From Candidatus Saccharimonadales bacterium (GTDB lineage: Bacteria > Patescibacteriota > Saccharimonadia > Saccharimonadales > SZUA-47), in the NCBI GenBank assembly GCA_038211855.1, contig JBBQVE010000002.1:6332-70331 (forward strand): DNA of 64,000 bases, written 5' to 3'. Numbering within the stretch: position 1 is the stretch's first letter; the number at the start of each line of letters is the position of its first letter. The notes beneath the pieces were generated by a model. It was not told where the DNA came from and searched no databases. It saw only the letters and a program-made list of their open reading frames with translations. Of this stretch, positions 6,134 to 61,396 are shown piece by piece. The position numbers were made by a program, and so were the translations under genes.

Positions 6134-7164
6134 AGCAGATCCTCTTTGATTAGTTTTGTTCTCTTTAGTAAAGCATAAGGAGTGAGTAAGGCAATCGAAA
6201 GTAACATTTTTTGACTTAGGAGGAACTCCTTCAGAGCTTGTTTCTTGCCGTAACGTCCACGGAGCGATGCAACTATGTTTTTAATACGAAAGACGAAGTG
6301 ATCTTTAAGGGTTGCCTTGCAACCACTCAGGATAATTCGTAAACGGGCATTCTTTAGGAGTATTAAGACACGATTACGGGCAACAAAGTGGTTAAAGAGT
6401 ATCGAGCCTTCGACGCTTGAACCGGTGTGCACATGGTAGGCAACAGCTTTACCGGCGAAGTAAAACGTATGTCCGGCTTTTTGACCACGCCAAGATAAAT
6501 CTCCATCCTCAAAATACATAAAAAAACGACTGTCGAACATACCGACTGTATGCAAGAATTCCCGGCTAAAAAGCACGCAGGCACCGCAAAAAGCGCTAAT
6601 CTCACGATCGGTCTCGTATTGGCCTGTATCTTGCTCATTCATACCAATTTCATAGGTTGGCCAGTTACTTTTTGGCTCTAATCGTGAACCGGCGTTGTTG
6701 ATGTAGCCAGGCTTATTTAAAAACATCAATTTTACAGTAGTTACGCTCGCTTGATATTTTTGCGCCGCTATGACGAGTTCTTTTACGACGTTTTTGTCGA
6801 GTTCGAGGTCATTATTACAGACGAGTATGTATTCGCCACGGGCTTGCTTCATACCCAGATTATTACCCCCCGCGTAGCCATAATTACCTTTGTTGCAGAC
6901 AATTTTAATACGATCGTCATTTGCATACTGCTGCTGAACATATGCAACAGAGTCATCGCTCGAGGCATTATCGGTAAATAGCAGCTCCATTTTATCTCTT
7001 GCATACGTTTGAGCAGCGAAAGACTTCATAAACGGCTCTATAAAACGTTTTCCATTCCAGTTCAGAACAACTATGGACACGAGCGGGAAGTTGTCATTAG
7101 CATAGCTCGCTGCAGAGGAGGTAGTCATCCTAATAATTCTATAGGTTACTGCCTGTACGGGCAA
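6130..7164 (-). CDS. glycosyltransferase family 2
   Basis: VSIVVLNWNG, FTDNASSDDS, NYGYAGGNN, CNNDLE and FMYFEDGDLSWR. The ORF start at 7164 is TTG; the ATG at 7128 is an equally plausible start. Confidence 0.8.
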   Translation of the reverse strand: MPVQAVTYRIIRMTTSSAASYANDNFPLVSIVVLNWNGKRFIEPFMKSFAAQTYARDKMELLFTDNASSDDSVAYVQQQYANDDRIKIVCNKGNYGYAGGNNLGMKQARGEYILVCNNDLELDKNVVKELVIAAQKYQASVTTVKLMFLNKPGYINNAGSRLEPKSNWPTYEIGMNEQDTGQYETDREISAFCGACVLFSREFLHTVGMFDSRFFMYFEDGDLSWRGQKAGHTFYFAGKAVAYHVHTGSSVEGSILFNHFVARNRVLILLKNARLRIILSGCKATLKDHFVFRIKNIVASLRGRYGKKQALKEFLLSQKMLLSIALLTPYALLKRTKLIKEDLL

Positions 7165-9524: not shown

Positions 9525-9618
9525 GACGTCTTTTTTATTTTGAAAGGAACCTGTGCATATCATACCAGCAGACGGCAGGTAAATCAAGATAATGTGTTTG
9601 GTATACTTTAGGGAGAAA

Positions 9619-11760
9619 ATGAAAAAAATACTTCATCGCTTTGAAACTATGCTCGGTTTATTGCCGCAGTGGATGCAGTCTAATTGGGCAATACTTGCTC
9701 TTTACACAGCTGTCGTCTTCATAGCACTTTCAAGCGTTCTGATTTTTCATGTAACAACATTTTTTACGAATTTGGACAACGTCAATCAGTTCTACACCTG
9801 GTATCAGAAGTTGGCTGTCGATGTACACCATGGCTTTTTGCCCATCTGGGATACGAACGTTTTTGGCGGCCAATCTTTTGCAGGCGAGCTACAGCCGGGC
9901 GTTTTCTACCCAATCAATATCCTTTGGACGTTACTTTTTGGAAGTGTGCACGGTATCTCGCAACAGGCTCTTGATTATTTGGTTGCATTACATTTTGTGA
10001 TAGCTTCATTCGGAGCTTATCTTCTTACAAAGCAGCTCGGTGCTCGCAAATGGTCGGCATTTGTTGGTGGCCTCATTTTTGCTTTTTCAGGGATGGTGGC
10101 ATTCCGCTCAATCTCACAAACAGTTATTTTCTTTGGTCTGGCGCTCATGCCATTTCCTATTTATTTCTTGGCAAAATATCACGCTCAGGCAAAAGCAAAT
10201 TGGTGGTGGCTGATAGCGTGCGGTGCTTCCCTTGGACTTATTTTATTATCTGGACACATTGACCCATTTTATTTTGCGCTACTCATACTCGGTATCTTTG
10301 AGCTGACGTATGTTTGCAAAAGGTACACTACTATTTCATCGCTACGGCGCCAACTTTTTAAGAGTTTTGTATCGTTTTGTATTATTGGTATCTCTTCGGC
10401 CATCATTGCCTTGCCACAGTTAGTCATTAGCGCCGGATATTTGCCACATGCTTATCGTATACAGGCAGTGGGGTACGCTGGCCCGGGTGAGAAGATAAGT
10501 TACCGTGACTTCTCAAAGTCATTTAATCTTGATATCCATGAAGCTGCAAACATCGTAGATCCGGTCAGCTATCAAACAAGGGACGGTAACAGCCTATTTA
10601 TTGGTTTGGTACCACTCGGTGTTCTAATTTTGACGCTTTGTTTTGCGAAGGTAAGGCTTAATAAAACAAAAATATGGGCAGAACATTCAAATTTTGCCAC
10701 TACGCTATTACTACTTAGTACTGTGGTGATGCTTGGGTATGTAACATGGTTCGCGGTTCTTTTATATGAGATTCCAGGTGTCTATCAGATAAGAGAGCTA
10801 GGACGGTACACAATCTTGTTTCATTTTGGCATGATTTTTTTGCTTGTAGCGGCACTCGAGGTTTTCGCGGAGATAAAGTTAACCAAGCGACAAAAATTGA
10901 AGACCTTCGCCGTGGGCGCGTTCTTATGGATAGACACGGCCTATCTTTTGCTTCTAAGGCACCGCATTTTTAGTCTCCACAATGCGCTACAAATAGGACT
11001 TCTATCACTGCTGTTACTATTTGTAAGCGTCATGGACTCCGAGCCTGTTAAAAAACTTGGTATTATCACTTTAGTTATATTTACTGTCTTCACAAACACC
11101 TTATGGTTCTTGCCGAATATCACACCAAAAACCGAAACACCTGCCGAATATAGTCGCATGCCCAGCAAGCTTGTAGCACTACTGGAGCAGACGAATGGCA
11201 GCTACCGGGTAGATATTCCGACGAACGCCATTCCCGTTAATACGGGGAATGTGTATAACGTACAGACAATGGGGGGATACGCTGCAACAGTCTATGCGCC
11301 ATACTATGAAGTCTTACATAAGTCAGCAGTTGACCCAGGGTTTGTTCGAGATATTTTTGGAGTAAAGCTCGTCGTTCAAAAGGAAAAACCAAGTGCAGGT
11401 CAAACGAGCGTGTATGAAGACATGAATAATCAAGTTTATATTGTAAGTCGACCATCAGCATTACCAAAGTTCTTCATGACTCTTCAGCCAGGCTCTCTAG
11501 TCCGAAGTGATTATCAGCCAATCACCTCGACGACCTTGAGTTATAACGATCATCTAGAAAAGTACAGTGTGACGATGCCGACCAACGGCACGGCTATCAT
11601 ATCGGAAATTGCCTATAGAGGCTGGACGGCTACGATTGACGGAATGAACGCAGACCTAAAGACGTATGAAGTGGCAGGTAAACCACTTTTGAAATCACTT
11701 GATTTGTCAGCTGGGACACACATAGTCGAACTTAGCTATAAGCCCTTTGGATTATTTTAA
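9619..11760 (+). CDS. YfhO-family polytopic membrane glycosyltransferase
   Basis: About 713 aa with many TM helices. N-terminal [30 protein letters not shown] is the YfhO hallmark. GGGAGA lies ahead of the ATG at 9619. Large extracytoplasmic C-terminal domain. Confidence 0.75.
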
Positions 11761-12473: not shown

Positions 12474-12525
12474 AGCAGTATATTCTTCCTTTTAGTACTC
12501 GCAGATATGATAGCATATAGGGTGA

Positions 12526-12975
12526 ATGAGGGCTTATGCGAAAAACAAAATCACTACACTTTTGAAAGTAGACTTCATTCGCTTTTGCATAGTTGGCGGC
12601 ACGGGCTTTATCATCAATCTCATCTTACTAGAACTATTAAATGGCGTTTTTAAACTGCCGATTATCACTGCTCAGCTCATTGCTGCCGAAATCTCCTTAT
12701 TCAGTAATTTCATGCTGCATCATCACTGGACCTACAAAAGCAAAAAGGTTAATAAGTCACTCAGGACACTCATCATCCAATTTCATGCGACATCATGGCC
12801 AGCTATCCTCGGAAGCAGCCTGATGGTGGGAGTCGGCGTAAAGACTTTTCATTTAAAGAAAATTGAGGCACTCGCAGTAAGCTCGGCTATTGCTTTGGTT
12901 TGGAATTTTTGTTGGTCAAAATTTGTAATATGGAAAGATACTACTAATGCCGATATTAAGGAGATGGTGAAATGA
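12526..12975 (+). CDS. GtrA-family membrane protein
   Basis: 149 aa with four hydrophobic helices. FIRFCIVGGTGFIINL and WNFCWSKFVIW are motifs typical of GtrA. Confidence 0.8.
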   Translation: MRAYAKNKITTLLKVDFIRFCIVGGTGFIINLILLELLNGVFKLPIITAQLIAAEISLFSNFMLHHHWTYKSKKVNKSLRTLIIQFHATSWPAILGSSLMVGVGVKTFHLKKIEALAVSSAIALVWNFCWSKFVIWKDTTNADIKEMVK

Positions 12976-15240: not shown

Positions 15241-15290
15241 TTTCTCTAGTCTTGTGTTCAATTTATAATTTTGATGTTAAAGTAGTAGCG

Positions 15291-16244
15291 ATGCTAAAGC
15301 TTACAAAAACAAAAAACTGGCTGCTTGGAGCCTTGTTGTTGGCGGTTATACCTGTTGCACTTACCGTCTCAGGACACAAAGTCTATGCAGAAGATACTAA
15401 CAGCTATCCGTGGATTCGACCCGTTAGTTGGCTTGACCAAGTCATTTCAAGCCCAACTGGGGGTACTGGACAGGGGCACATCGGCGTAGACCTTTTGTTA
15501 GGTAGTTCTAATCAGTCGTACGATCCTTGTCATAATAGCTCCGATCCATTTATATCTGGCTGCCAAAACTCAGGGGGATATTACAAGGTACTAAAGTACA
15601 ATTCATCGGGCAATGAATTTCCATATGGAATATTTATCGACAATACAAACGGAAGTGCCAGCCACTACTGGGCCAAGCGCACCGGAGTAGTGTTTCTAGA
15701 AATCTATCCTTATTCTATTCCCGTAAGTGCACCACTTTCTGGGTATCGGCTTGATCCAGGTGCTTGTGGTTGTGCGGTGTACGGTGGCCTAGAGGTGGTT
15801 ATCAAAGACTGGAAGGGTTCGTCCGCTCCGGGAAGTGCTTATTCAGCAAATATTGGTACTTTACGAACCACGAGTTTGACTGAACCTGACGTCGGCAAGA
15901 TGAATGGTTACATTAAGCGAAATGGTACAAATGTGGGTGCAGGCATCGCCAACACTGATTGGTTCGGACAGGACAGCAGTACGGCGCGTTCTAGCGGTGG
16001 ATTCCCGGTCTTTAGTTTTGCATCTTGGCCAACAAACGCCGATGGGTATTACACGTCGGGACCGGTGCTAAAGGGCAATTATCATTTTTATGTAACAGAC
16101 AATGGTCCGACAAATACTGGTCCAACGCGTAAAGTTGAATGCTTCGGCATTGGTGTCAAAGGAACTTCAGATAGAATGGATATGGAGCTGACGCAGCAAC
16201 ACTTTGGTCTGGATGGACCCGGCCGCCAATGTTATGATCGCTAG
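15291..16244 (+). CDS. secreted hypothetical protein
   Basis: The start is taken at MLKLTKTKNWLLGALLLAVIPVALTVSGHKVYA, which is a signal peptide. The annotated upstream extension overlaps the uxs-like gene. No recognisable catalytic motif. Confidence 0.6.
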   Translation: MLKLTKTKNWLLGALLLAVIPVALTVSGHKVYAEDTNSYPWIRPVSWLDQVISSPTGGTGQGHIGVDLLLGSSNQSYDPCHNSSDPFISGCQNSGGYYKVLKYNSSGNEFPYGIFIDNTNGSASHYWAKRTGVVFLEIYPYSIPVSAPLSGYRLDPGACGCAVYGGLEVVIKDWKGSSAPGSAYSANIGTLRTTSLTEPDVGKMNGYIKRNGTNVGAGIANTDWFGQDSSTARSSGGFPVFSFASWPTNADGYYTSGPVLKGNYHFYVTDNGPTNTGPTRKVECFGIGVKGTSDRMDMELTQQHFGLDGPGRQCYDR

Positions 16245-18560: not shown

Positions 18561-19572
18561 TGTTTCCGTCTTTTGTCTTGTACATGACATGTTCACGCAT
18601 CAGGTCAAATCTCTCGGAAAAGCTTTGCCACCATGGTTCATTACTCGTGTACCAATCAACAGTCTTCTTGATACCTTCTTCAAAAGACACGCTCTGTTTC
18701 CAGCCAAGGGTCTTTTCTATATAGCTTGGATCGATGTCATAGCGCATGTCATGCCCCGGGCGGTCGGTAACGAACTGAATCTGATCATGCGGCTTGCCAA
18801 GTGCTTCCAAGATAGCCCGAGCGACTTCAAGGCCACTCTTTTGGGCGGCACCACCAACACAGTATGTTTGACCAACCTCACCGTTGTGAAGAGCTAAATC
18901 TATTGCCGCACAATGGTCCTCAACAAACAGATAGTCACGAACAGCTGTACCGTTGCCGTACACGGGCAAAAGCTCATTGTGCATAGCCTTGGCGATAAAG
19001 ACCGGAATGATGCGACCTGGAGAGTCCCACGGACCATAATTGTTAGAACAGTTGGTGATTGTATAAGGTAGGCCGTAGCTTTCGCCGTAAGCCCGTACAA
19101 TATGGTCGCTCGATGCTTTGGAAGCTGCATAAGGGCTTCGCGGACTGTAAGGCGTTTGCTCATTGAATCGTAGGTTACTACCGAGTTCTAGGCTGCCAAA
19201 CACTTCATCGGTTGAGACGTGGTGAAAGCGCTTCACTCCTTGCTGAAGCGCAGCTCGGGCCAGACTATCAGTACCTAAGATATTCGATTGTAGAAATGGT
19301 CCTGGATCAGCAATTGAACGGTCGACGTGTGTGTAGGCAGCAAAGTGTACCACCCAGTCGACGCCTTTCAACAAAGTATTCATCGCATCAAAGTCACATA
19401 TGTCGGCCTTATGAAAAGTAATTTTATCTTTGACGGCCTCCAAGCGACCCTCATCACCAGCGTAAGTAAGAGCGTCCACGACAGATATTTTATAGTCGGG
19501 GTATTTATGTACCAGATAATGTACGAAGTTTGAGCCGATAAATCCTGCACCGCCCGTAACAAGTATTTCCAT
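18550..19572 (-). CDS. rfbB: dTDP-glucose 4,6-dehydratase
   Basis: ILVTGGAGFIGSNFVHYL, VSTDEVFG, YAASKASSDH and 340 aa. Confidence 0.93.
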   Translation of the reverse strand: MEILVTGGAGFIGSNFVHYLVHKYPDYKISVVDALTYAGDEGRLEAVKDKITFHKADICDFDAMNTLLKGVDWVVHFAAYTHVDRSIADPGPFLQSNILGTDSLARAALQQGVKRFHHVSTDEVFGSLELGSNLRFNEQTPYSPRSPYAASKASSDHIVRAYGESYGLPYTITNCSNNYGPWDSPGRIIPVFIAKAMHNELLPVYGNGTAVRDYLFVEDHCAAIDLALHNGEVGQTYCVGGAAQKSGLEVARAILEALGKPHDQIQFVTDRPGHDMRYDIDPSYIEKTLGWKQSVSFEEGIKKTVDWYTSNEPWWQSFSERFDLMREHVMYKTKDGNNDD

Positions 19573-19642
19573 AGATGTAAGTATAACAAATTGGCCGAAC
19601 AGTTTGGGATTTAATCGTCGTGGCGCGTGGTACTATGTCACC

Positions 19643-20680
19643 ATGATTGTCGTTGTGATAGCCGGAGGATCGGGGACACGCTTGTGGCCACTATCTACAC
19701 CGAATTTCCCAAAACATCTCCTTTCTATAGCAGGCAACAAAAGTCTTCTGCAGGAAACGATCGAAAGGGTTTTGAAAGTCGCAAATGCCGAAAAAATCTT
19801 CGTAATCTCAGAAGTATCACACAGTAAACATGTGCACGATCAAATAATAGAGATACCAAAAGAAAATCTCATTGCTGAACCATGCCGACGAGGCACAGCA
19901 AGTTGTATAGCTTGGGGATTGAGTGAAGTAAAAAAACGAGGCTTTAGCGAAACGGAGCCAGTGTTGTTTCTTTGGGCGGATAGCCTCATCCGTAATAGTG
20001 ATGGTTTTGCAGCGAGTGCACTGAAAGCTGGCGAAGTTGCCGTCGAGAAGCAATCAATAGTCTTTATTGGCGCCGAACCTACTTACCCTTCAACTGGCCT
20101 TGGCTATATGCAAAAAGGCAGTCAGATTAATGGCTGGCGCGGTATTTACGAACTTGAGCAGTTTGTAGAAAAACCAAACAAGAAAAAAGCTGACACTTAT
20201 TTTCAGAGTGGTGATTATCTCTGGAATACGGGGTATCTCGTCGGTACAATTCGTGATTTTGAAAGGGAATTTGATACTGTCGCTCCCGATATGGCAGCTC
20301 GTTATAAAAAGCTGAGCGAAGCCAAGGACATTGTAAGCGCCTATGAATCGCTCGAGAGCAATGCTATAGACTACGTTTTTTCTGAGATGCTAAAGGATGC
20401 GATTGTACTGCAAGGCAGCTTCGATTGGATGGATATTGGTTCATTTGGAGACCTCCACGACGTGAGCCTGCAAGATGAACAGGGTAACTTCATTTATGGA
20501 CCTACAGTTGAGCTTGAGAGTACAACCAATAGCTACATAAGAAACGATACAGAGGTTCCATTGGCCGTTATCGGAGTTGATAATATAGTCGTAGTAAGTA
20601 CGGCTAACGGTGTACTTGTTACAAATAAAAACTATGCACAAAAAGTAGGTGATGTCGCAAAACGACTCCAGACGCCATAG
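19643..20680 (+). CDS. manC: mannose-1-phosphate guanylyltransferase (no isomerase domain)
   Basis: MIVVVIAGGSGTRLWPLS is the conserved N-terminus. The TTG ORF start at 19604 adds 13 unconserved residues. Confidence 0.85.
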   Translation: MIVVVIAGGSGTRLWPLSTPNFPKHLLSIAGNKSLLQETIERVLKVANAEKIFVISEVSHSKHVHDQIIEIPKENLIAEPCRRGTASCIAWGLSEVKKRGFSETEPVLFLWADSLIRNSDGFAASALKAGEVAVEKQSIVFIGAEPTYPSTGLGYMQKGSQINGWRGIYELEQFVEKPNKKKADTYFQSGDYLWNTGYLVGTIRDFEREFDTVAPDMAARYKKLSEAKDIVSAYESLESNAIDYVFSEMLKDAIVLQGSFDWMDIGSFGDLHDVSLQDEQGNFIYGPTVELESTTNSYIRNDTEVPLAVIGVDNIVVVSTANGVLVTNKNYAQKVGDVAKRLQTP

Positions 20681-24253: not shown

Positions 24254-25699
24254 TTAATCTACGCGCCTTTCGATAATTCGTTTTAGTACCTGTACGAACG
24301 TTTTTAATAATATGACGATATCGAACCAAAAGCTCCAGTTCTGCACATAATAAATGTCGAGTTTACGCCGTTCTTCAACCGGAATATTATTGCGACCGGA
24401 AATCTGGGCGAGGCCGGTGAGTCCCGATTTGACGCTTAAAATTAGATTCTTTAGAGGATACTCTTCAAGATCACTGGCAATCAAGGCGCGAGGTCCTACG
24501 AGGCTGATATCACCTTTTAAAATGTTAAATAACTGAGGTAGCTCATCAAGAGAAGTAGCACGCAAGAAATTACCAAACTTACCAATACGTGGGTCATTCG
24601 GCAAGAAATTACCGTGCTTTGTGAACTTTTCAAACAGATCTGGACGACCCATTTTTGTAAACGCGTCTACTGGATCGAGGCCGTTGTATTTGTGTCGGTG
24701 TGTGCGGAATTTATAAATATTAAAAGTCGTATTAAAGCGAGTCAGACGTTGTTGTTTAAGCAAAACGTCGCCGCCATCAAAAATCTTAAGATAGAGTGCT
24801 AGCAAGAGCATGATTGGCGAGGTGACGATGATACCTATAATCGATGTCAAGATGTCTAGCAACCGCTTGGCGATGCGCCCCCAGCCGACCAATGCAGTCT
24901 GGTGCACAGATACGACTGGGATGTTCTGGAGCAGCCCGATGTCGACCTTACCAACAAACACATTGTTATTGCCTGGCACAAAACGGTAGGCCATATGGTG
25001 TTCTTGGGCATAGCTCAATATCTCGTCATTCTCATTGGTATCGGCGAACAGTTCGGACTGCACGACACTCTGAATCGTATGTTTTTGGAGGGCTTCGATT
25101 GCTTCCTCAAAACTAGCGAACTGCTTTTTGGCCGGAATGTCTGCAAAATGATGATGGCCGCTGACCACTCCGACGACCGTATAACCGGTAAGTCCGGTAT
25201 GGGAAAGGCTGTGGTAGAGCTCGTTGGTAATCGGTGTGCCACCGACGAGTAGCACATGGTTAACGCCGATGCCGCGGGCAAATAGACTACGCCGAGATGC
25301 CCGCAATAGGGTCCGCGAAAAGAGCACCAACAACATACTGATAATCAAACCATACACCGGTACCAAACGGGCCGGAAAGATGGTACGGTTGAGGACGTAG
25401 CCGCTGGAAAGCAGGAACAAAGTACCTATAAAACTACCGATGGCGATACGGGCGGCCTCGCTAAAGCGGTTCTCATAGACTTCGCTCTTATACATGTTAA
25501 GAAAGCCAAAAATCATCAGCCAGAATGGGAGCAAGACAAGGAAGATAAGTAAGTAGGTGTGCGCCGGAACTTGCGCCGGTAGTGGGCGAGTATCCAATTT
25601 TACACGAATGATATAAGCGAGGATAAAGGCGGCCACCAAAGAGACAAAGTCGCCGATAAGCAAGATAAAGCTATAAAGAAGCGATGAGTTATTTTTCAT
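24254..25699 (-). CDS. undecaprenyl-phosphate sugar phosphotransferase (WbaP-type initiating transferase)
   Basis: N-terminal TM bundle, a central linker and a C-terminal bacterial sugar-transferase domain (SLDELPQLFNILKGDISLVGPRA). The start is taken at MKNNSS; the longer ORF overlaps the divergent gtrA-like gene. Confidence 0.85.
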   Translation of the reverse strand: MKNNSSLLYSFILLIGDFVSLVAAFILAYIIRVKLDTRPLPAQVPAHTYLLIFLVLLPFWLMIFGFLNMYKSEVYENRFSEAARIAIGSFIGTLFLLSSGYVLNRTIFPARLVPVYGLIISMLLVLFSRTLLRASRRSLFARGIGVNHVLLVGGTPITNELYHSLSHTGLTGYTVVGVVSGHHHFADIPAKKQFASFEEAIEALQKHTIQSVVQSELFADTNENDEILSYAQEHHMAYRFVPGNNNVFVGKVDIGLLQNIPVVSVHQTALVGWGRIAKRLLDILTSIIGIIVTSPIMLLLALYLKIFDGGDVLLKQQRLTRFNTTFNIYKFRTHRHKYNGLDPVDAFTKMGRPDLFEKFTKHGNFLPNDPRIGKFGNFLRATSLDELPQLFNILKGDISLVGPRALIASDLEEYPLKNLILSVKSGLTGLAQISGRNNIPVEERRKLDIYYVQNWSFWFDIVILLKTFVQVLKRIIERRVD

Positions 25700-25736
25700 C
25701 AGTGACTTTATTATAACCTGATACACTAGGGTTAGC

Positions 25737-26198
25737 ATGAGCGTAAATAAAAATCTTCGCCGGCGCATCATCCAGTTTGTCGAATACATGGTGGCTGGCG
25801 GTGCCTACTTCTGGACCGGCTATCTTGTATTCTTCTTGCTCGATAAGGGGTTGCACTGGAATTTATTTGCCGTGACGATGGTTTCCAGCCTTTGCGGTTG
25901 GACGGTCAATTTCATGCTGCAGCGCTACTGGGTGTTCAAGAATCCGAAGTCCCGCGAGCACATGGGGCAGACCACTTGGCGTTATATCATCATTACGCTC
26001 GTCGATTTTGGGCTCAATTATCTCATATTATATGGCTTGAATAAGGTGCACATCGGCTCACTTAGAATTAATCCATACATCGGACAATTTATCTCGAGTG
26101 GCTTTTTTACAGTCTGGAACTATCTGTGGTACCGCTATTGGGTGTTTCCTGAGCGTTACCAGCCCAAGCATAAAGGGAAGAAGAAGGCTCGTCGATGA
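25737..26198 (+). CDS. GtrA-family membrane protein (second paralogue)
   Basis: 153 aa. QFVEYMVAGGAYFWTGY, WTVNFMLQRYWVF and four helices. Confidence 0.75.
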   Translation: MSVNKNLRRRIIQFVEYMVAGGAYFWTGYLVFFLLDKGLHWNLFAVTMVSSLCGWTVNFMLQRYWVFKNPKSREHMGQTTWRYIIITLVDFGLNYLILYGLNKVHIGSLRINPYIGQFISSGFFTVWNYLWYRYWVFPERYQPKHKGKKKARR

Positions 26199-27477: not shown

Positions 27478-27534
27478 CTCGTCGTGTACGGAGGCGTGCT
27501 ACAATAAGTAAAGTCAACCATACACGAGGCATAG

Positions 27535-27759: not shown

Positions 27760-28111
27760 GAACGGCTTAGATATTGTTTTGGTGTTGCTTCTGGCCATCA
27801 TTAGTTTGTTTACAATTGCACCGAAGCAACTGGTCATGCCGACTTCCCTCCAAATGGCTTTGTTCGTCATTGCCTTCGGTTTTGTCAGTGCATTTGTGGT
27901 GCTTGTCTGGCGCGAAGATCCAGCCGACGAGCGTGAAGCCGAGCATCAACATGAAGCCAGCCGCGCTGCCTATCTGGCAGGCTGCTCATTGTTGATAGTG
28001 GCGATGGTCGTACAAGGCTTTCGCCATCACCTCGATCCAGTCATCCCACTCGCACTTTTCTTGATGATAGTAACTAAGCTTGGAATACAGAGATATAAAG
28101 ACAAAAAGTAA
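27746..28111 (+). CDS. small membrane protein co-transcribed with the XRE regulator
   Basis: The start at MKKYKNG overlaps the HTH gene end by 14 nt. Four hydrophobic segments. This pairing is common for YozG-type regulators. Confidence 0.6.
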   Translation: MKKYKNGLDIVLVLLLAIISLFTIAPKQLVMPTSLQMALFVIAFGFVSAFVVLVWREDPADEREAEHQHEASRAAYLAGCSLLIVAMVVQGFRHHLDPVIPLALFLMIVTKLGIQRYKDKK

Positions 28112-28118
28112 AGTCAAC

Positions 28119-30680: not shown

Positions 30681-31262
30681 TTACACGATTTGGGTATGAA
30701 ACAGGTGAAGGAGGTGGTTGTAGTGCGACGCACCGTACCACACATCTAAGCCGACAATTACAAAAAAGAGAAGTCTCTCGATGTTTTTACCCGTCGTTAT
30801 TCGAAGTAACTTGAACGGTGGAAAGCCAAATTTCATAGGGAGGGGCAGCAACCACGGCACGCCTTCTTTGGTGAGGGTGTCCATGATAAGGTGTGATACC
30901 ATGCCAATTAAAAATGCCAGCCATACCAAACGAGTATCAACCGAACGCATAATCGGCTGCAAAAAGTGTAGTAGTAAACGAGACAAGAACGCGAACAGAC
31001 CCAGACCAACAATAGAATGGGTTAAAAAACGATGACCGCCGAGCATTTTGTCGATTAATTTCCCAAAATAACCCCCAACCGGTAAGTTACGCCAAAACGG
31101 TGCGGTTGGTTGATCTATATCAGGCGTTATGCCGCCAATCTGGTTGGCCAAAAGCGATATCAACAGTGTTGAAAGAGTAATTTTATGGTCACCGCTCCCC
31201 ACAGCTAAGACAATAATCGCCAAGGCGTTAAAAGCGGCAAGGTCGTGTGTGCGGGCTGTCAT
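30681..31262 (-). CDS. membrane-bound metal-dependent hydrolase (YdjM/DUF457-like)
   Basis: Polytopic, with HRFLTHS and SHLIMDTLTKEGV motifs. The ATG at 31262 is preferred over the GTG at 31268. Confidence 0.65.
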   Translation of the reverse strand: MTARTHDLAAFNALAIIVLAVGSGDHKITLSTLLISLLANQIGGITPDIDQPTAPFWRNLPVGGYFGKLIDKMLGGHRFLTHSIVGLGLFAFLSRLLLHFLQPIMRSVDTRLVWLAFLIGMVSHLIMDTLTKEGVPWLLPLPMKFGFPPFKLLRITTGKNIERLLFFVIVGLDVWYGASHYNHLLHLFHTQIV

Positions 31263-31292
31263 GCCCACATGATAGCAAAGATAAGCGGTATA

Positions 31293-31627: not shown

Positions 31628-31684
31628 CTGCATTTTTGGTGACAAATGACCGGAGAATGACTAGAGTCGAGTATAATTAAGGGA

Positions 31685-32347
31685 ATGGAAGCCGAAGATC
31701 TGAAAAAACATTTTCCCGAGCTCACGAGCCGTTTCTTTAGTGCCGGTGAAACAATCCTCTATCAAGGGGAGCTGCCGCGGACTGCTTACGTCGTGAAATC
31801 AGGTCTTATTAAGATATATAGTATTTCGGTCAATGGTGAAGAGCGCATCGTCGATTTCGGTGTTGGTGGCGAGATTCTGGCCAGTTCCTGGGTGTTCGGT
31901 AATGCCTCCAGCACGCTCTATTACTACCAGGCGATTGAAGATTGTGATCTGTATGAAATCTCGCGCAGCGATTTGCTGACCTATCTAAAGACCTCCAAAG
32001 CAGCCTCAGTTATGTTAGAACGGGTGAACGGCCAGTATACAGCCGCGATGCTACGCATCACCGCCCTCGAACAAGCCCGCGCCCGCGATAAGATTCTCTT
32101 TACATTTTATTATCTGCTGCAGCGCTTTGGTAAAGAAATCGTTCCTGGTTGGTACACGATTCACTTATCGCTGACCCACCAAATGGTTGCCGACCTCGTT
32201 GGGCTGACCCGCGAAACCACCGCCGTCGAACTCAGTAGTATCAAAAAAACGAAAGTTCTCTCCTATAAGAGACAAAAATACCTCGTCCACAAAAACCGCC
32301 TGCTGAAAGCAATCGGCGAAGACACCTTCGCGAACATCACCTTTTAG
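31685..32347 (+). CDS. Crp/Fnr-family transcriptional regulator
   Basis: N-terminal cNMP-binding-type beta-roll and C-terminal HTH (LTHQMVADLVGLTRETTAVELSSI). No N-terminal Cys cluster, so it is not an FNR-type O2 sensor. Confidence 0.85.
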   Translation: MEAEDLKKHFPELTSRFFSAGETILYQGELPRTAYVVKSGLIKIYSISVNGEERIVDFGVGGEILASSWVFGNASSTLYYYQAIEDCDLYEISRSDLLTYLKTSKAASVMLERVNGQYTAAMLRITALEQARARDKILFTFYYLLQRFGKEIVPGWYTIHLSLTHQMVADLVGLTRETTAVELSSIKKTKVLSYKRQKYLVHKNRLLKAIGEDTFANITF

Positions 32348-39098: not shown

Positions 39099-39180
39099 AG
39101 GCGTGCCATGAACCTCGGCTATTTCTTGTAGTTACTCTGGTGCGAAGGGAAGTACCTTATCGACTGACATGAACTTAATA

Positions 39181-39211
39181 GTAACATAAAAAACATAATT
39201 TACAAATTATG
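39181..39211 (-). terminator. weak AT-rich hairpin plus T-tract after msrA
   Basis: The minus strand reads CATAATTTGTAAATTATG followed by TTTTTTA, 5 nt after the msrA stop. The stem is almost all A/T, so stability is low. Confidence 0.25.
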
Positions 39212-39215: not shown

Positions 39216-39734
39216 CTAGTCTTTTATGCGTTCGGCGAATTTTTTGCGTAGTTTTTCGAGCTTGGGATTGATGATGATCTGGCAAAAGTCCGGACGATTA
39301 ATCTCATAATTATTATGATAGTCTGAGGCAGCATAGAAGCTCTTAAATGGGGAGATTTCTGTAACGATTTTATTATTCCAGATAGGCTGATATTTTTGTA
39401 ATTCGGCTTCAATTATCTGTTTCTGAGCTTCATCCGCGTAAAAAATAACAGAGCGATATTGTGTTCCGACATCGACGCCTTGTCTGTTAAGGGTAGTTGG
39501 ATCATGAAGCGTCCAAAAAATTTCCAAAATTTCCACTAACGCAATAATTTCTGGATTATATGTAAGTCTCACGACTTCGGCGTGACCAGTATTTTCTGAA
39601 TAGATCTGTTCATCGGTAGGATTCGGTATGTCACCACCGCTATATCCTTGTTCTACAGAGCTTATGCCCTTAACAAGCTTATAGGCAGCATCAAAGCACC
39701 AGAAGCAGCCACCGCCCAAAACAATTGATTCCAT
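39216..39734 (-). CDS. msrA: peptide-methionine (S)-S-oxide reductase
   Basis: GGGCFWC active site, HAEVVRLTYNP, and 172 aa. Confidence 0.92.
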   Translation of the reverse strand: MESIVLGGGCFWCFDAAYKLVKGISSVEQGYSGGDIPNPTDEQIYSENTGHAEVVRLTYNPEIIALVEILEIFWTLHDPTTLNRQGVDVGTQYRSVIFYADEAQKQIIEAELQKYQPIWNNKIVTEISPFKSFYAASDYHNNYEINRPDFCQIIINPKLEKLRKKFAERIKD

Positions 39735-39937
39735 GAAACTAGTATACGCTGGCTAACGAGTCATTCGTGCGCGCAAAACTGCTTTTACAGCATCAATGTC
39801 TTTTTCGACCGTTATAAAACCGCCACTCGAACGCTTCTCAAGTCCTTCACCGGGATCTCGTGTACTAACATAGTCACTCATATAGTCCAGATTAGATCAT
39901 CGATTAACGGATAGCAAGCATGAGCAGCGTGAGTCAT

Positions 39938-40816
39938 TTACACCAGATAATGCGTGATAGAAATCATGAGGCTAAATATAAGCAGTGCAAGCAATGAAAA
40001 ACCAAATATCTGTTTGCCCCATTTATCATTATTTTTTGTCGAGAAGCCTTTAATAGCCAGCCGTAGCCATAGCGCACAGACCGTCAGCATGACACCCAGG
40101 TATATATAGCCTGCGTAGTGAAATGCGGTGAGTGAACAGGCTGCGAGTGCAAAAAGGACTGTATAAAACAGTATGTGTCGTTTTGTGGCGGCGATACCTC
40201 GTTTGGCTGGCAATATGGGCAAACCAGCTTCCGTATAGTCTTTAAGTCGGTAGATGCCGATAGCGTAAAAATGTGGCATTTGCCAAGCGGCCATAATCAA
40301 AAATAGGAGGAGGGCCAATACATCAAAGCGGCCAGTCACGGCGCAGTAGCCGGCCACCAGCGAGGTGGCGCCAGATATACTACCAACGAGCGTACCGTGC
40401 ACGGAGGTGCGCTTAAAATAGCCGTAGAGCACTACATAAGAAAAGATACCGACTGCGCCTATTATGACCGTCAGGGCGTTCGTGTAAGCGGCCAACAGCC
40501 AGAATCCTAGTACACCAAGTACGCAGGCGTATGTAATCGCGGCGGCTATAGAAATCTCACCCGTGACAAGCGCGCGATTTTTGGTGCGGTCCATCTTTCT
40601 ATCAATCCCGCGATCCAAATAATTATTGAACACACAGGCGCTGGCAATAATCAGCGCGGTCCCCGTAAGCGTGGCTAGCAACTTCCAGAAATCCACATGG
40701 CCTTTACTCGCCAGCAAAAAGCCGGCCGCCGCCGTCATGAGATTACCACGGATAATACCGGGCTTTGTCAGCTGGTAGTAATGCCGAAAGGTGTCGATTG
40801 TCTGATTTCCTTTCAC
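39938..40816 (-). CDS. cyoE: protoheme IX farnesyltransferase (heme O synthase)
   Basis: UbiA-fold protein, NNYLDRGIDRKMDRTKNRALV, nine TM segments. Last gene of the cyo operon (ATGA overlap). Confidence 0.9.
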   Translation of the reverse strand: MKGNQTIDTFRHYYQLTKPGIIRGNLMTAAAGFLLASKGHVDFWKLLATLTGTALIIASACVFNNYLDRGIDRKMDRTKNRALVTGEISIAAAITYACVLGVLGFWLLAAYTNALTVIIGAVGIFSYVVLYGYFKRTSVHGTLVGSISGATSLVAGYCAVTGRFDVLALLLFLIMAAWQMPHFYAIGIYRLKDYTEAGLPILPAKRGIAATKRHILFYTVLFALAACSLTAFHYAGYIYLGVMLTVCALWLRLAIKGFSTKNNDKWGKQIFGFSLLALLIFSLMISITHYLV

Positions 40817-41475
40817 GGTGTAACGGTAAATGTACCTGCCACACTGTCATCAAGGTGATCGTGAAACGTATAAGTTCCTGCCTGGTTGAGTGTTAAAGTT
40901 TTTGGGTATTTCTTTTGAACGGATAACTCTTCGACGCCACCATATATTTCGTGGTGAGGATGTGGCCCAAACGCAACATCGCGTACTACCGTATCTTCGT
41001 TCACAAACGTGAGTGTATCGCATAATTTCGCCTGTGTACTCTGGGGGCTCACTTTGCCATCCTTGAAAGTAACGATGTGACTCGCTTTAATCTCTTGGCA
41101 GGCACCAGTCTGAACGCCGTTGACCTGTGAGATGCCCTCATCCTGCGAGAGCTTTTTGGTGACTTGTGCCGCTGTTGGTGACATAGCGTAACGTAAGTTA
41201 TTCATAATAAATATTGAGCCTAAGACGACCACCAGAATGGTACCAACTGTAAAAACAAAGAAAGTGATGTTGTAGAGCGGCTTTGGCCCCCGGCCAAGGT
41301 GCAAGAAGAAGAATATTTGAACCGCCATCTGCAGCACCGCAAATCCCAGAATCGTTGCCAGCAGTGTAGTACCGGTGACGGACTTATTCACCACGAGATA
41401 ATACGGAATAGCCGTGAATACTAAAGATAAAAAGAATCCAAATATGTAGGATTTTAATGACCCGTGTTCGCTCAT
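40813..41475 (-). CDS. cyoD: cytochrome bo-type quinol oxidase subunit IV fused to a C-terminal extracytoplasmic cupredoxin-like domain of about 125 aa
   Basis: Residues 1-91 carry three TM helices with the CyoD pattern (SYIFGFFLSLVFTAIPYYLV, LQMAVQIFFFLHLG). Residues 92-220 are soluble and beta-rich (HIVTFKDGKVSP...LTFVNEDTVVRDVAFGPHPHH...GTYTFHDHLDDSVAGTFTVTP). Confidence 0.8.
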   Translation of the reverse strand: MSEHGSLKSYIFGFFLSLVFTAIPYYLVVNKSVTGTTLLATILGFAVLQMAVQIFFFLHLGRGPKPLYNITFFVFTVGTILVVVLGSIFIMNNLRYAMSPTAAQVTKKLSQDEGISQVNGVQTGACQEIKASHIVTFKDGKVSPQSTQAKLCDTLTFVNEDTVVRDVAFGPHPHHEIYGGVEELSVQKKYPKTLTLNQAGTYTFHDHLDDSVAGTFTVTP

Positions 41476-42062
41476 ACGAAGGCCCTCAAGTACACAAAGG
41501 TAAAGATAAATATCCAGACAATATCCAAAAAGTGCCAGAACAGGCTGAGCAAAGTCAATTTGCGCACCATATGAGTGCTAAGACCGCGCTTTTTGACAAA
41601 TATCAAGGTTATTGCCATCCATAGTAAGCCCGAGATGATGTGTAGCCCGTGCGTCCCAACCAGAGCGAAGAATGACGAAAAGAAGGCATTGCTGCTGATG
41701 GTGTGTCCGGCACGGATAAACTCAGTAAATTCCTTTAGTTCCAGTCCCAAGAAGGATATGCCCAAGAGAAATGTCAGGCCAAACCAAGAAAAAACTTGCT
41801 TCTTGTTGCCAGCACGAGCAGCAATCATAGCGACGCCACATGTAAAGCTGCTCGTCAGTAGAATGAGCGTTTCGGCCAGGGCGAGGTGAAGGCTAAAGAG
41901 ATCGCGGCCCGTCGGACCACCGAGCGTATTGTCGTGTAGCACTGCATAGACCGCAAAGAGCACGGCGAACATCAGAAGGTCGGTCATTAAGTAGACCCAA
42001 AAACCGAATAGCACCCGCTCGGTTGCAGCTTCTTCGTGCGCAGCTTCCGTCACTGCTACCAT
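41472..42062 (-). CDS. cyoC: cytochrome bo-type quinol oxidase subunit III
   Basis: Five TM helices, FGFWVYLMTDLLMF, LHIISGLLWM. The start is taken at MVAVTE, overlapping the cyoB stop by 7 nt. Confidence 0.88.
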   Translation of the reverse strand: MVAVTEAAHEEAATERVLFGFWVYLMTDLLMFAVLFAVYAVLHDNTLGGPTGRDLFSLHLALAETLILLTSSFTCGVAMIAARAGNKKQVFSWFGLTFLLGISFLGLELKEFTEFIRAGHTISSNAFFSSFFALVGTHGLHIISGLLWMAITLIFVKKRGLSTHMVRKLTLLSLFWHFLDIVWIFIFTFVYLRAFV

Positions 42063-44146
42063 GTGCGCCACCGTTTGTTCCTCGCAATGTCGAGGGCCCA
42101 TGCCACTACAATCTTAATAAATTCCCATAAGCCCATGTCTTCATCGGAGTCTGCTCCCTTCGCTCCGTGCAAAGCATGCATTTTCTTGCTGCTTGCAACG
42201 GCAAGTTTTTCTACCTCAGCAGCCGGTATGGTATATTCGGTATTTTCATCAAACGTACGCATAATCGTGAATATAATAATCCCAAGAAATCCTACAACAG
42301 CTAGCCAGTTTACGTGCCACACAAACCCAAAGCCGACCAAAAAAGCGAAGCCTGAAATGTAGATGCCTGATGCCGTGCTCTTGGGCATATGGATGTCTTC
42401 ATAGATGACTTTTGGTATGCCTTTTTGCTTCATGTCGAGGAACGCATCACGACTGGTCACTTCCGGAATGACGGCAAAGTTATAAGACGGCGCAGGTGAG
42501 GGGACGGACCATTCCAAGGTTCGTCCATCCCAGGGGTCGCCAGTGGTATCGATCAGTCGTCTTTTTTGCATGAAACTGGCGATGATTTGGATGATTTGGA
42601 GCGCTAGTCCGGAGGCAATGACGAGCCCACCAATAAACGCCATGATGAAAAAGGGCTGGTAATGGGTGGAAGCATCATAGTGGTCGAGCCTTCTGGTGGC
42701 ACCCATCAGTCCAAGCACATAGAGCGGCGTAAAGGCCATCAGAAAGCCAATGAACCAGCACCAGAACGCATACTTTCCGATACGCTCGTTCAGTCGGAAT
42801 CCAGCAATTTTCGGGAACCAATACGATATGCCCGCAAAGATCCCAAACAACACACCGCCAACAACCATCGTGTGAAAGTGCGCCACCAAAAACAGACTGT
42901 TGTGCAACTGAAAATCAACTGGTGGGACGGCCAACATCACACCCGCCATACCGCCAACTGCAAACAAACCCACGAAGCCCATGAACCACAACATTGGCGT
43001 CGAGAACTTTATTTTGCCTCTGTACATGGTGGCAATCCAGGTAAAGAATAAGACCGACGTTGGAATGGCGATAATTATGGTCATGAGCCCAAAAAAGGCA
43101 CTGACATCAGCACTGGAACCCATTGTAAAGAAGTGGTGGAGCCAGACCGACAGCGCGAAGGCTGAGACGCCGATCATACCGACAACGTTGGACATATAAC
43201 TGGCCGAGGCCTTTCGACTGAAGGTAGATACGATTTCTGAAAACACGCCAAACGATGGCAACATTAAGATATACACTTCAGGGTGTCCCCACATCCAAAT
43301 GAGGTTGGTGTACATCATGGCGTTGCCACCAAGATTCGTCGTGAAGAAATGCGCGCCAAAATAGCGGTCCAAGAACATCAGCAGCAACGCCATCGTGAGT
43401 AATGGAAAAACAGTGACCGCCATGATCATGCTACACAGTGATCCCCAGGTAAAGAGTGGCATTTTGCGGAGTGTCATGCCGGGCGCGCGCATTCGGAGGA
43501 TTGTCATAATAAAGTTAATCGCACCAAGCGTTGTGCCAACACCAGAAATCAGCAGGCTCCACAGCCAATAATCCACCCCCGTTCCTGGGCTGAATTGTAT
43601 TCCTGACAGTGGAGCAACCGCCAACCAGCCAGTCGCGGCGTATTGCCCACCGAGTACAAAGAACATGTTCACCATGACAACACCAGCGATAAATAACCAG
43701 AACCCTAGCGTATTCAAAAATGGCGATGCCAGGTCGCGCGCACCAATCTGCAAAGGAACAATGTAGTTTATCAGTCCGAATATCAAGGCCATCGCCACAA
43801 AGAACACCATGATGTTGCCGTGGGCCGTAAAGATCTGTTGGTAGTGGTCCGCCGAGAGGATGCCGTGAGAAGATCCCGACGATAAAGCTTGATGGAGCCA
43901 CATAATGAGCACATCGAGGCCGCCGCGCAGGAGCATGAAGCCACCAACCAGGAAGTACATAATGCCAATCTTTTTTGGATCAACAGAGGTTAGCCATTCA
44001 TTCCACAGCCATTTCCAGCGTTTCATACGGGTGATGACAATCACCGCAAACAGTATCATAGCTCCAAAGCCGAGGGTTCCCGCAATGGTCACCCACTCAT
44101 GCGGTAAGGCGTTGGCGTCGAGCCGACCTAAAAGAAATTCTCTCAT
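42056..44146 (-). CDS. cyoB: cytochrome bo-type quinol oxidase subunit I (heme-copper oxidase)
   Basis: 696 aa. WMWGHPEVYILMLP (CuB His), WLHHFFTMG, LVAHFHTMVVGG (heme ligands). Confidence 0.95.
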   Translation of the reverse strand: MREFLLGRLDANALPHEWVTIAGTLGFGAMILFAVIVITRMKRWKWLWNEWLTSVDPKKIGIMYFLVGGFMLLRGGLDVLIMWLHQALSSGSSHGILSADHYQQIFTAHGNIMVFFVAMALIFGLINYIVPLQIGARDLASPFLNTLGFWLFIAGVVMVNMFFVLGGQYAATGWLAVAPLSGIQFSPGTGVDYWLWSLLISGVGTTLGAINFIMTILRMRAPGMTLRKMPLFTWGSLCSMIMAVTVFPLLTMALLLMFLDRYFGAHFFTTNLGGNAMMYTNLIWMWGHPEVYILMLPSFGVFSEIVSTFSRKASASYMSNVVGMIGVSAFALSVWLHHFFTMGSSADVSAFFGLMTIIIAIPTSVLFFTWIATMYRGKIKFSTPMLWFMGFVGLFAVGGMAGVMLAVPPVDFQLHNSLFLVAHFHTMVVGGVLFGIFAGISYWFPKIAGFRLNERIGKYAFWCWFIGFLMAFTPLYVLGLMGATRRLDHYDASTHYQPFFIMAFIGGLVIASGLALQIIQIIASFMQKRRLIDTTGDPWDGRTLEWSVPSPAPSYNFAVIPEVTSRDAFLDMKQKGIPKVIYEDIHMPKSTASGIYISGFAFLVGFGFVWHVNWLAVVGFLGIIIFTIMRTFDENTEYTIPAAEVEKLAVASSKKMHALHGAKGADSDEDMGLWEFIKIVVAWALDIARNKRWRTW

Positions 44147-45048: not shown

Positions 45049-45135
45049 TCCTACAATTTCACCACTGTTTAAAATTAAACATAACTACGTTCACTATAGC
45101 ATGATGGCCGCTGGCTTAGTAGGAGACAATTTGGG

Positions 45136-47009: not shown

Positions 47010-47030
47010 TACCTTTTAGTATAACTGCTG

Positions 47031-48218: not shown

Positions 48219-48288
48219 TACCTAAAACTATACCAGAAAAGCAGTAGCGTGTTGCTAAAACCCGTTAACATCTTTAAGCTTATGGTAT

Positions 48289-51585: not shown

Positions 51586-51878
51586 GTAGGCTTTGGTATG
51601 TGCCCACCTTCTTGTAGGAGTGTAGTCGTCCAGCGTCTGAGTTCCGCTACTTTTGCCGGGTCGATTTTCTTTGGATCGATCTTAAATTCTCTAAAGCAGT
51701 AGCCAACGCCTTCTCTGACATGTCCTGAATAACCATGCATTCCCATATCAAGGCCGGCAAAATCTTCGTAGTCCATTAGTTCCAAAAGCAAATCTGCCGT
51801 CGCAAGGTCTTCAGGGGGTACGACGATTTCAGGCATACCTTCTTTTTCTGGTGTCATGAGTCTCATTATAAGGCACAC
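51582..51878 (-). CDS. hypothetical small acidic protein (about 91-98 aa)
   Basis: ORF with a GTG start at 51878. The ATG at 51857 is preceded by TATAAT at a 7-nt spacing. No recognisable motifs. Confidence 0.5.
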   Translation of the reverse strand: MCLIMRLMTPEKEGMPEIVVPPEDLATADLLLELMDYEDFAGLDMGMHGYSGHVREGVGYCFREFKIDPKKIDPAKVAELRRWTTTLLQEGGHIPKPT

Positions 51879-58307: not shown

Positions 58308-58347
58308 GTATATCTATGATACCAGTAGATGTCTTGCACTTAGTCGA

Positions 58348-58650: not shown

Positions 58651-58706
58651 ACAAATTCATTCTCCGAAGAGGATCCATAAATAGTTTATTTTGTTATAGT
58701 TAATTC

Positions 58707-61384: not shown

Positions 61385-61396
61385 ACCTAAATTATA

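Follow-up and report, generated by a model that had tools for sequence, protein, structure and literature searches.

Results

Gene content of the window

We examined a stretch of 64,000 nucleotides from contig JBBQVE010000002.1 (hereafter the window), in which a hexamer of the form TAnnnT, resembling the -10 element of bacterial promoters, recurs shortly before the ATG start codons of many genes. The source organism is a soil-type member of the Saccharibacteria (TM7; Patescibacteria, or candidate phyla radiation, CPR), order Saccharimonadales. The GC content of the window is 46-47%. Its RfbB is 76% identical to a protein from a metagenome-assembled genome (MAG) of an uncultured Candidatus Saccharibacteria (locus L002), and the next matches of this protein search are other Saccharibacteria and CPR. 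The protein searches returned a closely graded series of relatives (71-88% identity), part of them named Candidatus Saccharimonadales. According to the Pfam matches, the first 27 kb form a cell-envelope polysaccharide cluster, with rfbABCD, manC, PGM, wbaP, Wzm/Wzt, many glycosyltransferases and two GtrA-like proteins. The rest of the window holds two-component systems, a crp-like regulator, msrA and a lysA-like gene, along with a cytochrome oxidase operon, a polyprenyl synthase, UbiA and ndh, and also a KwaB-like protein, an MFS transporter, a csoR-like repressor with an ArsP-type permease, and a deacetylase-GT2 fusion. Searches of the whole window for tRNAs and Rfam families gave no matches, and no hexamer is accounted for by an RNA gene.

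Hexamers ahead of start codons

An earlier note on this DNA had reported the hexamer exactly 6-7 nucleotides (nt) upstream of the ATG at eleven genes, had added four genes with a somewhat longer spacing, and had read the arrangement as a signature of leaderless mRNAs. All 15 pairs of hexamer and ATG were located precisely where that note had placed them. The spacer is 6 nt at manC (19628-19645, plus strand; extended -10 element, TGnTAnnnT, of sequence TGGTACTAT at 19628-19636; ATG 19643), which diverges from rfbB. The same spacer is found at the ydjM-like gene (31260-31277, minus strand; TGCTATCAT; ATG 31262), msrA (39732-39746, minus; TATACT; ATG 39734), the MFS transporter (58692-58709, plus; TGTTATAGT; ATG 58707), the csoR/rcnR-like gene (61382-61411, minus; TATAAT at 61396-61391; ATG 61384), the polysaccharide deacetylase-GT2 fusion (61442-61459, plus; TGTTACAAT; ATG 61457) and an S/T/P-rich open reading frame (ORF; 63900-63917, minus; TGCTATAAT; ATG 63902). 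It is 7 nt at rfbB (19570-19588, minus; extended -10 TGTTATACT at 19588-19580; ATG 19572), the crp-like gene (31672-31687, plus; TATAAT; ATG 31685), which is a weaker case, the lysA-like gene (39168-39186, minus; TGTTACTAT; ATG 39170), the frame of which is interrupted, and an ORF of 91/98 amino acids (aa; 51855-51870, minus; TATAAT; ATG 51857), for which both gene and start are without support. The four added genes have a spacer of 8 nt, at ndh (48216-48235, minus; TGGTATAGT; ATG 48218), the SDR gene (56679-56695, minus; TAGAAT; ATG 56681) and the ydeI-like gene (DUF1905 and OmdA; 58305-58324, minus; TGGTATCAT; ATG 58307), or of 10 nt, at the wbaP-like gene (25697-25715, minus; TATAAT; ATG 25699), which would have a short leader and has no Shine-Dalgarno (SD) sequence.

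The list of eleven was accurate in its coordinates and incomplete in its coverage, for at least three cases at 6-7 nt had been missed. These are a GT2 glycosyltransferase gene (1964-1978, minus; TACTAT at 1978-1973, 6-nt spacer, ATG 1966), a second GT2 gene that follows a 57-nt gap within a row of genes on the same strand (7126-7141, minus; TAGAAT, 7-nt spacer, ATG 7128), and a 317-aa ORF (15275-15293, plus; TGTTAAAGT, 7-nt spacer, ATG 15291), for which the list of ORFs (the ORF track) offers GTG 15165. Further cases outside the list have spacers of 8-12 nt. They comprise the FAD-linked oxidase gene, divergent from ndh (48275-48291, plus; TAAGCT, 8 nt, ATG 48289), the two GtrA-like genes (12508-12528, plus; TGATAGCAT, 9 nt, ATG 12526; and 25719-25739, plus, divergent from wbaP; TGATACACT, 9 nt, ATG 25737), a 713-aa ORF (9599-9621, plus; TGGTATACT, ATG 9619) with an 11-nt spacer that contains GGGAG and is ambiguous between a short leader and an SD, and the ABC-2 (Wzm-like) permease gene (1966-1989, plus; TGCTATAAT, 12 nt, ATG 1987), which has no SD. 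The -10 boxes of this permease gene and of the GT2 gene that starts at 1966 on the opposite strand overlap, and the TG of the plus-strand box lies inside the GT2 start codon.

Among the 23 curated sites the hexamers resemble TATAAT, which itself occurs six times, followed by TATACT and TACTAT (three each), TATAGT, TATCAT and TAGAAT (two each), and TACAAT, TAAAGT, TAGCAT, TACACT and TAAGCT (once each). The start codon is ATG in 23/23.

Excess of the hexamer before start codons

Starts were assigned by a rule blind to the hexamer, in which ORFs of at least 80 aa were chosen greedily by length and the first ATG was taken, the upstream sequence being ignored. TANNNT was present at a spacer of 6 or 7 nt in 13 of the 68 genes so defined, with a peak at spacers 6-8. 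The expectation derived from spacers 12-39 of the same upstream regions is 3.5 (binomial p 4e-5), and 500 shuffles gave a mean of 3.2 and a maximum of 9. Of the 2157 remaining ATG triplets of the window, 2.9% carry the motif at 6-7 nt (Fisher p 2e-7). The earlier guess of a few percent by chance was correct. When the window was pooled with the loci of eight close relatives, the motif preceded 13.6% of first ATGs, 5.3% of second in-frame ATGs and 2.6% of intragenic ATGs.

A start-agnostic test led to a broader view of the spacing. The 141 TGNTANNNT sites of the window are followed by ATG 6, 5, 8, 4, 7 and 5 times at spacers 6-11, versus 2.5 per spacer elsewhere, and by GTG 0, 0, 0 and 0 times at spacers 6-9. 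The wording "exactly 6-7 nt" was thus too narrow: the enrichment of ATG extends over all spacers from 6 to 11, and the spacing runs without a break from 6 to about 12 nt, with 6-7 nt as the mode in the window. In a rough positive control on high-GC contigs that carry deacetylase-GT2 homologues, the peak likewise fell at 5-9 nt.

One could attribute such an excess to AT-rich intergenic DNA, to upstream stop codons or to a choice of starts guided by the hexamer. Individual blind matches do have this character: at 23096 the upstream gene has its stop at the TAG of TAGAAT, at 46131 the upstream gene contains the hexamer, and at 61456 the match is TAGTTT. The earlier note had, moreover, picked some of its starts by the pattern. 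The excess nevertheless persists under the blind start rule, the shuffles and the controls with other offsets and other ATGs, and the enrichment of TG, the conservation in orthologues, the Pfam boundaries and the public gene calls described below are independent of the choices made in that note. Chance or artefact is largely refuted already, and we regard it as a scarcely credible account of the pattern.

On a curated map, 17-18 of approximately 33-35 transcription units have a -10 box at 6-8 nt, a count that is partly subjective; five further units have one at 9-12 nt and some ten units are leadered with an SD. By this curation, about half of the transcription units (17-23 of ~33-35) carry a -10 box 6-12 nt before the ATG. 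Nearly all candidates are divergent or follow a gap on the curated map. An automatic split into head and internal genes placed 10/13 candidates and 34/55 other genes at the head, a difference that was not significant with this crude and noisy ORF caller.

Support for the start codons

The value of the spacing depends on the start codons, and the Pfam matches begin close to them. Given as protein residue and profile position, the matches start at 3 and 2 in manC (NTP_transferase), 3 and 1 in rfbB (Epimerase), 1 and 1 in YdjM, 4 and 2 in MsrA (PMSR), 3 and 2 in ndh (Pyr_redox_2), 6 and 2 in csoR (Trns_repr_metal) and 4 and 1 in the GT2 protein that starts at 1966 (Glycos_transf_2). With domains beginning at residues 1-6, no start further downstream is feasible for these genes, and a start further upstream would add residues without homology. 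In the MFS transporter, MFS_1 begins at residue 14.

Look-ups of exact sequences showed that 18 of the 22 proposed starts are those of independent public gene calls on the source contig. The products called with the same start include RfbB (340 aa), manC (345 aa), ydjM (193 aa), msrA (172 aa), the MFS transporter (396 aa), the deacetylase-GT2 fusion (660 aa), wbaP (481 aa), the GT2 proteins from 1966 (316 aa) and 7128 (332 aa) and the protein from 15291 (317 aa); the ndh product is also among them. Longer starts are offered by the ORF track or by the public calls for manC, ydjM, csoR, the 15291 gene and others. The public calls use ATG 15291 and ATG 7128, both of which the ORF track would lengthen. 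Opposite the ydeI-like gene, the ORF at 57829-58407 (plus) was considered as a gene and rejected, Pfam favouring the ydeI-like gene on the minus strand.

Promoter features of the sites

Directly ahead of the hexamer, the TGn of an extended -10 element is present in 9/15 of the sites listed earlier, 14/23 of the curated sites and 6/13 of the blind candidates, compared with 1/16 by chance (p 7e-5). This extension had gone unmentioned in the earlier note. A TG one base upstream of the hexamer (-15/-14) is a contact of the sigma factor, and we know of no role for it in translation. The -35 region is weak: a match to TTGACA at 4/6 positions or more is found at 16-18 nt in only 30% of the candidates, versus 11.5% of control hexamers.

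The SD sequence shows the opposite distribution. An SD core precedes 0/13 blind candidates of the window and 14/55 of its other genes (25%; p 0.055), and in the close relatives the figures are 0/18 candidates and 50/141 other genes (35%; p 9e-4). None of the 15 genes listed earlier has an SD core, as had been claimed for them, and the coexistence of two modes of initiation was likewise borne out, with GGAGG-type sites preceding internal and long-leader genes. Several candidates face each other across very short divergent regions, which leave no room for other promoters further upstream: rfbB and manC are separated by 70 bp, csoR and the GT2 fusion by 72 bp, and the ATGs at 1966 and 1987 by 20 bp.

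These observations bear on the proposal that the hexamer acts in RNA, as an A/U-rich, non-SD translation signal within longer leaders that come from more distant promoters. The weak -35 boxes of the window would suit such a signal, and bacteria with non-SD motifs near the start are known, among them the Bacteroidetes (group B of GeneMarkS-2; PMC6028130). The group B motifs, however, precede all genes, internal ones included, whereas the hexamer is lacking before the internal genes of operons, which have GGAGG. The pattern T1-A2-T6 and the TG upstream of it are features of promoters, and the divergent regions are too short for the distant promoters that would be needed. We consider a signal in RNA very improbable and a promoter directly before a leaderless gene the better description of these sites.

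Conservation in relatives

Loci of relatives were collected through homologues of RfbB and Crp; a first set of Saccharibacteria from a genome scan (L002, L003, L043, L049) held too few genes for a profile. Among the rfbB orthologues, a -10 box lies 6-9 nt before the ATG in 8/8 relatives with 57-82% identity, while the spacers are unrelated and the upstream neighbours differ. The boxes are TATACT (L167), TAGAAT (L164) and TACAAT (L166) at 6 nt, TGTTATACT (L002) and TGCTATACT (L163) at 7 nt, and TGCTATAAT (L162) and TGCTATACT (L003) at 9 nt. For msrA the spacer is exactly 6 nt in three genomes with three hexamers, TATACT in the window, TAAGAT in L167 and TAAAAT in L168. The ydjM orthologue of L167 has TGTTATAGT (TGnTAnnnT) at 6 nt and that of L168 has TAGACT at 8 nt; those of manC have TGTTATGAT at 6 nt in L166 and TACTAT at 8 nt in L164. 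An ndh orthologue (L170) has TATAAT at 7 nt, and an orthologue of the FAD oxidase (L172) has TAAGCT at 6 nt. The wbaP orthologues range over 7-14 nt, with TATAAT at 7 nt in L169 and TGTTACAAT/TGGTACAAT at 12-14 nt in L163, L164 and L166. In the blind test on eight close relatives, 18 of 159 genes had the motif at 6-7 nt, with 13 at spacer 6 alone (p 4e-3).

The variation among orthologues raises the question of whether the promoters are real and most transcripts carry a leader of 2-8 nt, so that the AUG is 5'-proximal and not strictly 5'-terminal. The continuous run of spacers from 6 to 12 nt speaks for such short leaders, as does the range within the orthologues of one gene, 6-14 nt overall (6-9 for rfbB, 7-14 for wbaP). 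The distance from the -10 element to the start site also varies by +/-2 nt in bacteria, as reported in a promoter survey (PMC12641261). The commonest spacer, however, is 6 nt for the close relatives as well as for the other CPR loci described below, and 6-7 nt in the window, which would place the usual start on the A of the ATG; genomes with verified leaderless genes share this mode, with spacers of 6-8 nt (PMC6028130). We judge it unlikely that short leaders are the rule, and favour transcripts that begin at the AUG where the spacer is 6-7 nt.

Two classes of transcription units

The leaderless model predicts that a near promoter goes without an SD and a distant promoter with one. Where the best -10 box is distant, approximately 19-44 nt upstream, an SD lies between box and ATG, weak in the case of cyoA. 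Such units are PGM (22041; TATAAT at 23 nt, SD AAGGGGGA), a GT2 gene (12473; TGCTATCAT at 33 nt, SD AAGGAAG), an XRE gene (27535; TGCTACAAT at 29 nt, SD GAGG), an ORF at 28177 (TTGACA-17-TATGCT, SD GGGGG), a PNPOx gene (ATG 55214; TAGTAT at 19 nt, SD GGAGAA) and cyoA (45048; TGCTATAGT at 44 nt, SD no more than a weak AGGA adjoining the ATG).

RNA polymerase normally starts about 7 nt after the -10 hexamer. The hexamers are best explained as genuine -10 elements of the sigma-70 type, mostly of the extended class (TGnTAnnnT) with a weak or absent -35. Transcripts would start at the A of the ATG where the spacer is 6-7 nt, and a few bases before it where the spacer is 8-12 nt. The first gene of such a unit would be translated from a leaderless or near-leaderless mRNA without SD pairing, the ribosome presumably binding the 5'-terminal AUG directly. 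Downstream genes of operons, and units with a promoter at least 20 nt upstream, would use GGAGG-type sites or coupling through overlapping stops. The position-specific excess, the TGn, the missing SD, the Pfam boundaries, the public calls and the conserved boxes all support the leaderless interpretation put forward in the earlier note, with start sites that are predicted from the DNA. The 5' end probably coincides with the AUG, as judged from the canonical distance of ~7 nt between -10 element and start, and the mode of ribosome recruitment is likewise a probable one. Taken as a whole, we regard the leaderless or near-leaderless explanation as likely.

Several observations weigh against it. 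Four starts differ from the public calls, those of the 91-aa ORF, the 94-aa csoR, the S/T/P-rich ORF and ydeI, and the first three of these count here; Pfam gave no family match for the 91/98-aa ORF or the S/T/P-rich ORF. A scan of 19-32.5 kb for consensus -35/-10 promoters (and terminators) gave no sites above those in shuffles, and a -35 is mostly missing. Some spacers contain G-rich runs (taaggga at crp, tttaggta and ttagggagaaa; ggagggtat and ggaggc in orthologues), which could be vestigial SDs, or functional ones if transcription starts elsewhere. Among more distant Saccharimonadales, the pattern at 6-7 nt is limited to about 4 of 60 called genes.

Two of the genes listed earlier are also less secure than they had appeared. 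The crp-like gene does have TATAAT 7 nt before ATG 31685, and yields a product of 220 aa, a length common to its homologues. The arrangement is not conserved, which makes the case weaker than it had been presented: the orthologues in L167 (10001), L168 (3942) and L169 (10001), with 88, 84 and 74% identity, are led by SD sequences (CAGGAG, GGGAG and GAGGGG) and have no hexamer. Compared across these close relatives, the upstream regions suggest that the mode of initiation has switched recently. In the lysA-like gene, TACTAT stands 7 nt before ATG 39170 (minus) as described, and the frame is stopped at codon 13 by an in-frame TAA (39134-39132; MSVDKVLPFAPE*LQEIAEVHGTPVFVYD). The residues on either side of the TAA resemble a normal LysA N-terminus, and the TAA may be a nonsense mutation or a sequencing error, or there may be re-initiation at GTG 39098. 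Either the gene is broken or its start is GTG 39098, and the hexamer may still be a promoter. The lysA gene is absent from the syntenic relative L167.

Discussion

Comparison with known systems

The boxes of the window resemble a promoter class of E. coli and Gram-positive bacteria, the extended -10 promoters (TGnTATAAT), with TG at -15/-14 and a -35 that is weak or missing. In model organisms such promoters normally drive leadered mRNAs; in the window, by contrast, the boxes are placed against the start codon. An AUG-first transcript without an SD is also the form of the phage lambda cI mRNA from PRM and of isolated leaderless mRNAs of E. coli (PMC10491246), and for the window this form is predicted. 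In E. coli these mRNAs are rare within a genome dominated by SD sequences, whereas the predicted leaderless genes are a major class in the window.

The closest parallel is with the Actinobacteria and Deinococcus-Thermus. TANNNT with its first T approximately 12 bp before the start is a published in-silico marker of leaderless genes (Zheng et al.; PMC3160421). Group C of GeneMarkS-2, in which a Pribnow box lies 6-8 nt from the first gene of the operon, holds 90% of Actinobacteria and 97% of Deinococcus-Thermus (PMC6028130), and the arrangement was confirmed by differential RNA sequencing in Deinococcus deserti and Mycobacterium tuberculosis (PMC4007540, PMC3898074). The window shares with this TA-led group the TANNNT at spacers of 6-8 nt, before genes that by the curated map would mostly be first in operons, the lack of an SD there and the SD-led internal genes (PMC3160421, PMC6028130, PMC4007540). 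The 20-50% share of genes or operons is common to both, and so is the switching of orthologues between SD-led and leaderless modes, which has been described for leaderless genes (PMC3160421) and of which crp would be the example in the window. There are differences as well. The lineage is another one, the accessible tables of those surveys containing no Saccharibacteria or Patescibacteria. The high-GC phyla have a bare TAnnnT, whereas the window, at 46% GC, has an informative, TATAAT-like middle and frequent TGn. Mycobacteria also use GTG, whereas the candidates in the window use only ATG, and the start sites of the window are predicted from sequence. Leaderless genes of archaea (group D of GeneMarkS-2) are similar in that the start codon has a promoter element at a constant distance, and they too are first in operons, as most candidates of the window would be. 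They differ in that this element is a TATA box ~26 nt upstream, served by the archaeal transcription apparatus (PMC6028130), in place of a bacterial Pribnow box at ~10 nt.

Full-text searches across about 8 million papers found nothing that ties the Saccharibacteria or any CPR lineage to leaderless mRNAs, the matches being unrelated or confined to reference lists, although an earlier mention in the GeneMarkS-2 tables or in the TM7x transcriptome paper is possible. The accessible part of a promoter survey with 188 start sites of N. lyticus inferred from RNA-seq makes no comment on leaders (PMC12641261). The leaderless architecture is thus well known, and what our analysis supports is the Saccharibacteria as a new lineage for it.

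The practical consequence is for annotation. Gene callers tuned to SD sequences misplace starts in such genomes, and the knowledge that a Saccharibacteria or CPR genome is "group C-like" would improve thousands of MAGs. CPR bacteria have reduced ribosomes and few regulators. If their leaderless class is large, much of CPR translation initiation would bypass SD pairing, and promoter strength would be tied directly to translation. Saccharibacteria are becoming genetically tractable, and extended -10 promoters fused to the ATG would offer a natural expression cassette for their genetics. For evolution, one lineage would be added to the distribution of leaderless genes, with crp orthologues that switch mode within 74-88% identity.

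Other CPR lineages

The same blind test was applied to rfbB neighbourhoods of other lineages, which are small samples with similar gene neighbourhoods. In 11 loci of Microgenomates (L015, L017, L021-L023, L025, L032, L033, L045, L050, L052), TANNNT stands 6-7 nt ahead of the first ATG in 47 of 226 genes (21%). At spacer 6 there is a sharp peak, 31 versus a background of 7.4 (p 2e-11), and many of these are textbook promoters, TTGACA-17-TATAAT placed 6 nt before the ATG. The peak is weaker in Parcubacteria-like loci (15/124, p 6e-3), and in loci of unnamed Patescibacteria the excess was not significant. Over all 26 other-CPR loci, TGn is present in 18 of 76 candidates. Fifteen loci from outside the CPR gave 15/277, which was not significant, with TG in 0/15. 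The -35 comparison did not discriminate in the other CPR loci, since the upstream hexamers are probably promoters too.

These counts would be in keeping with leaderless or near-leaderless initiation as a major, possibly ancestral, mode across the CPR. We see the evidence from these neighbourhoods as evenly balanced for so wide a claim, which is a lead and not a result. If true, the CPR would join the Actinobacteria and Deinococcus-Thermus as a leaderless-rich lineage. This would fit proposals that place the CPR within the Terrabacteria, and would bear on the reduced ribosomes of the CPR and on start-codon errors in the annotation of their MAGs.

Further elements and genes of the window

At the csoR-like gene, a palindrome (TACCCC-ATA-GGGGTA, 61397-61411) abuts the -10 box TATAAT (61396-61391), as expected for an autoregulated repressor, which also speaks for a promoter at this site. 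It sits between the divergent operon of the csoR-like gene and ArsP-type permease and the deacetylase-GT2 fusion, and as a putative operator it would resemble published CsoR operators. The alternative csoR start at ATG 61456 was rejected, because this operator-like palindrome would then fall within the coding sequence and because the Pfam match starts at residue 6 of the short form.

The deacetylase-GT2 fusion on the other side of this region (61457-63439) has a different set of relatives. Its best 80 metagenomic homologues (L082-L161) are 35-48% identical and all lie on contigs of 57-75% GC that are Actinobacteria-like. With such values of GC content and identity they are not Saccharibacteria, and they were rejected as relatives of the clade. 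High-GC bacteria, which are the usual hosts of Saccharibacteria, may be the source of the gene.

This CPR genome has an aerobic respiratory module at 39938-48218 (minus). It comprises COX2, COX1, COX3, COX4_pro and a UbiA/CyoE-like gene in the oxidase operon, together with genes for the polyprenyl synthase, for another UbiA prenyltransferase and for a type II NADH dehydrogenase, and is also found in the relatives L167-L169 and L171. The KwaB-like protein (53632-54642, minus; PF16162, E 5.5e-14) belongs by its name to the Kiwa anti-phage defence, and no obvious KwaA partner was identified adjacent to it.

Two repeats lie ahead of other genes. A perfect inverted repeat with an 18-bp stem (55265-55307; CACCGTGCCTAGAATCAC-acatact-GTGATTCTAGGCACGGTG) is located in the divergent region between a bPH-domain gene (ATG 55353, plus) and the PNPOx-like gene (minus), the real start of which is ATG 55214 and not the long-ORF start at 55450; the repeat may function as an operator or as a bidirectional hairpin. 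Two promoters share an exact 13-nt repeat, AAGTAAAGTCAAC (27506-27518 and 28106-28118, plus), with 0.08 chance matches expected. The first copy lies just 3' of the -10 box of a previously unlisted 72-aa XRE/HTH_3 gene (ATG 27535) and the second shares bases with the -35 box (TTGACA) of the ORF at 28177. The repeat AAGTAAAGTCAAC is probably the operator of the XRE/HTH_3 regulator.

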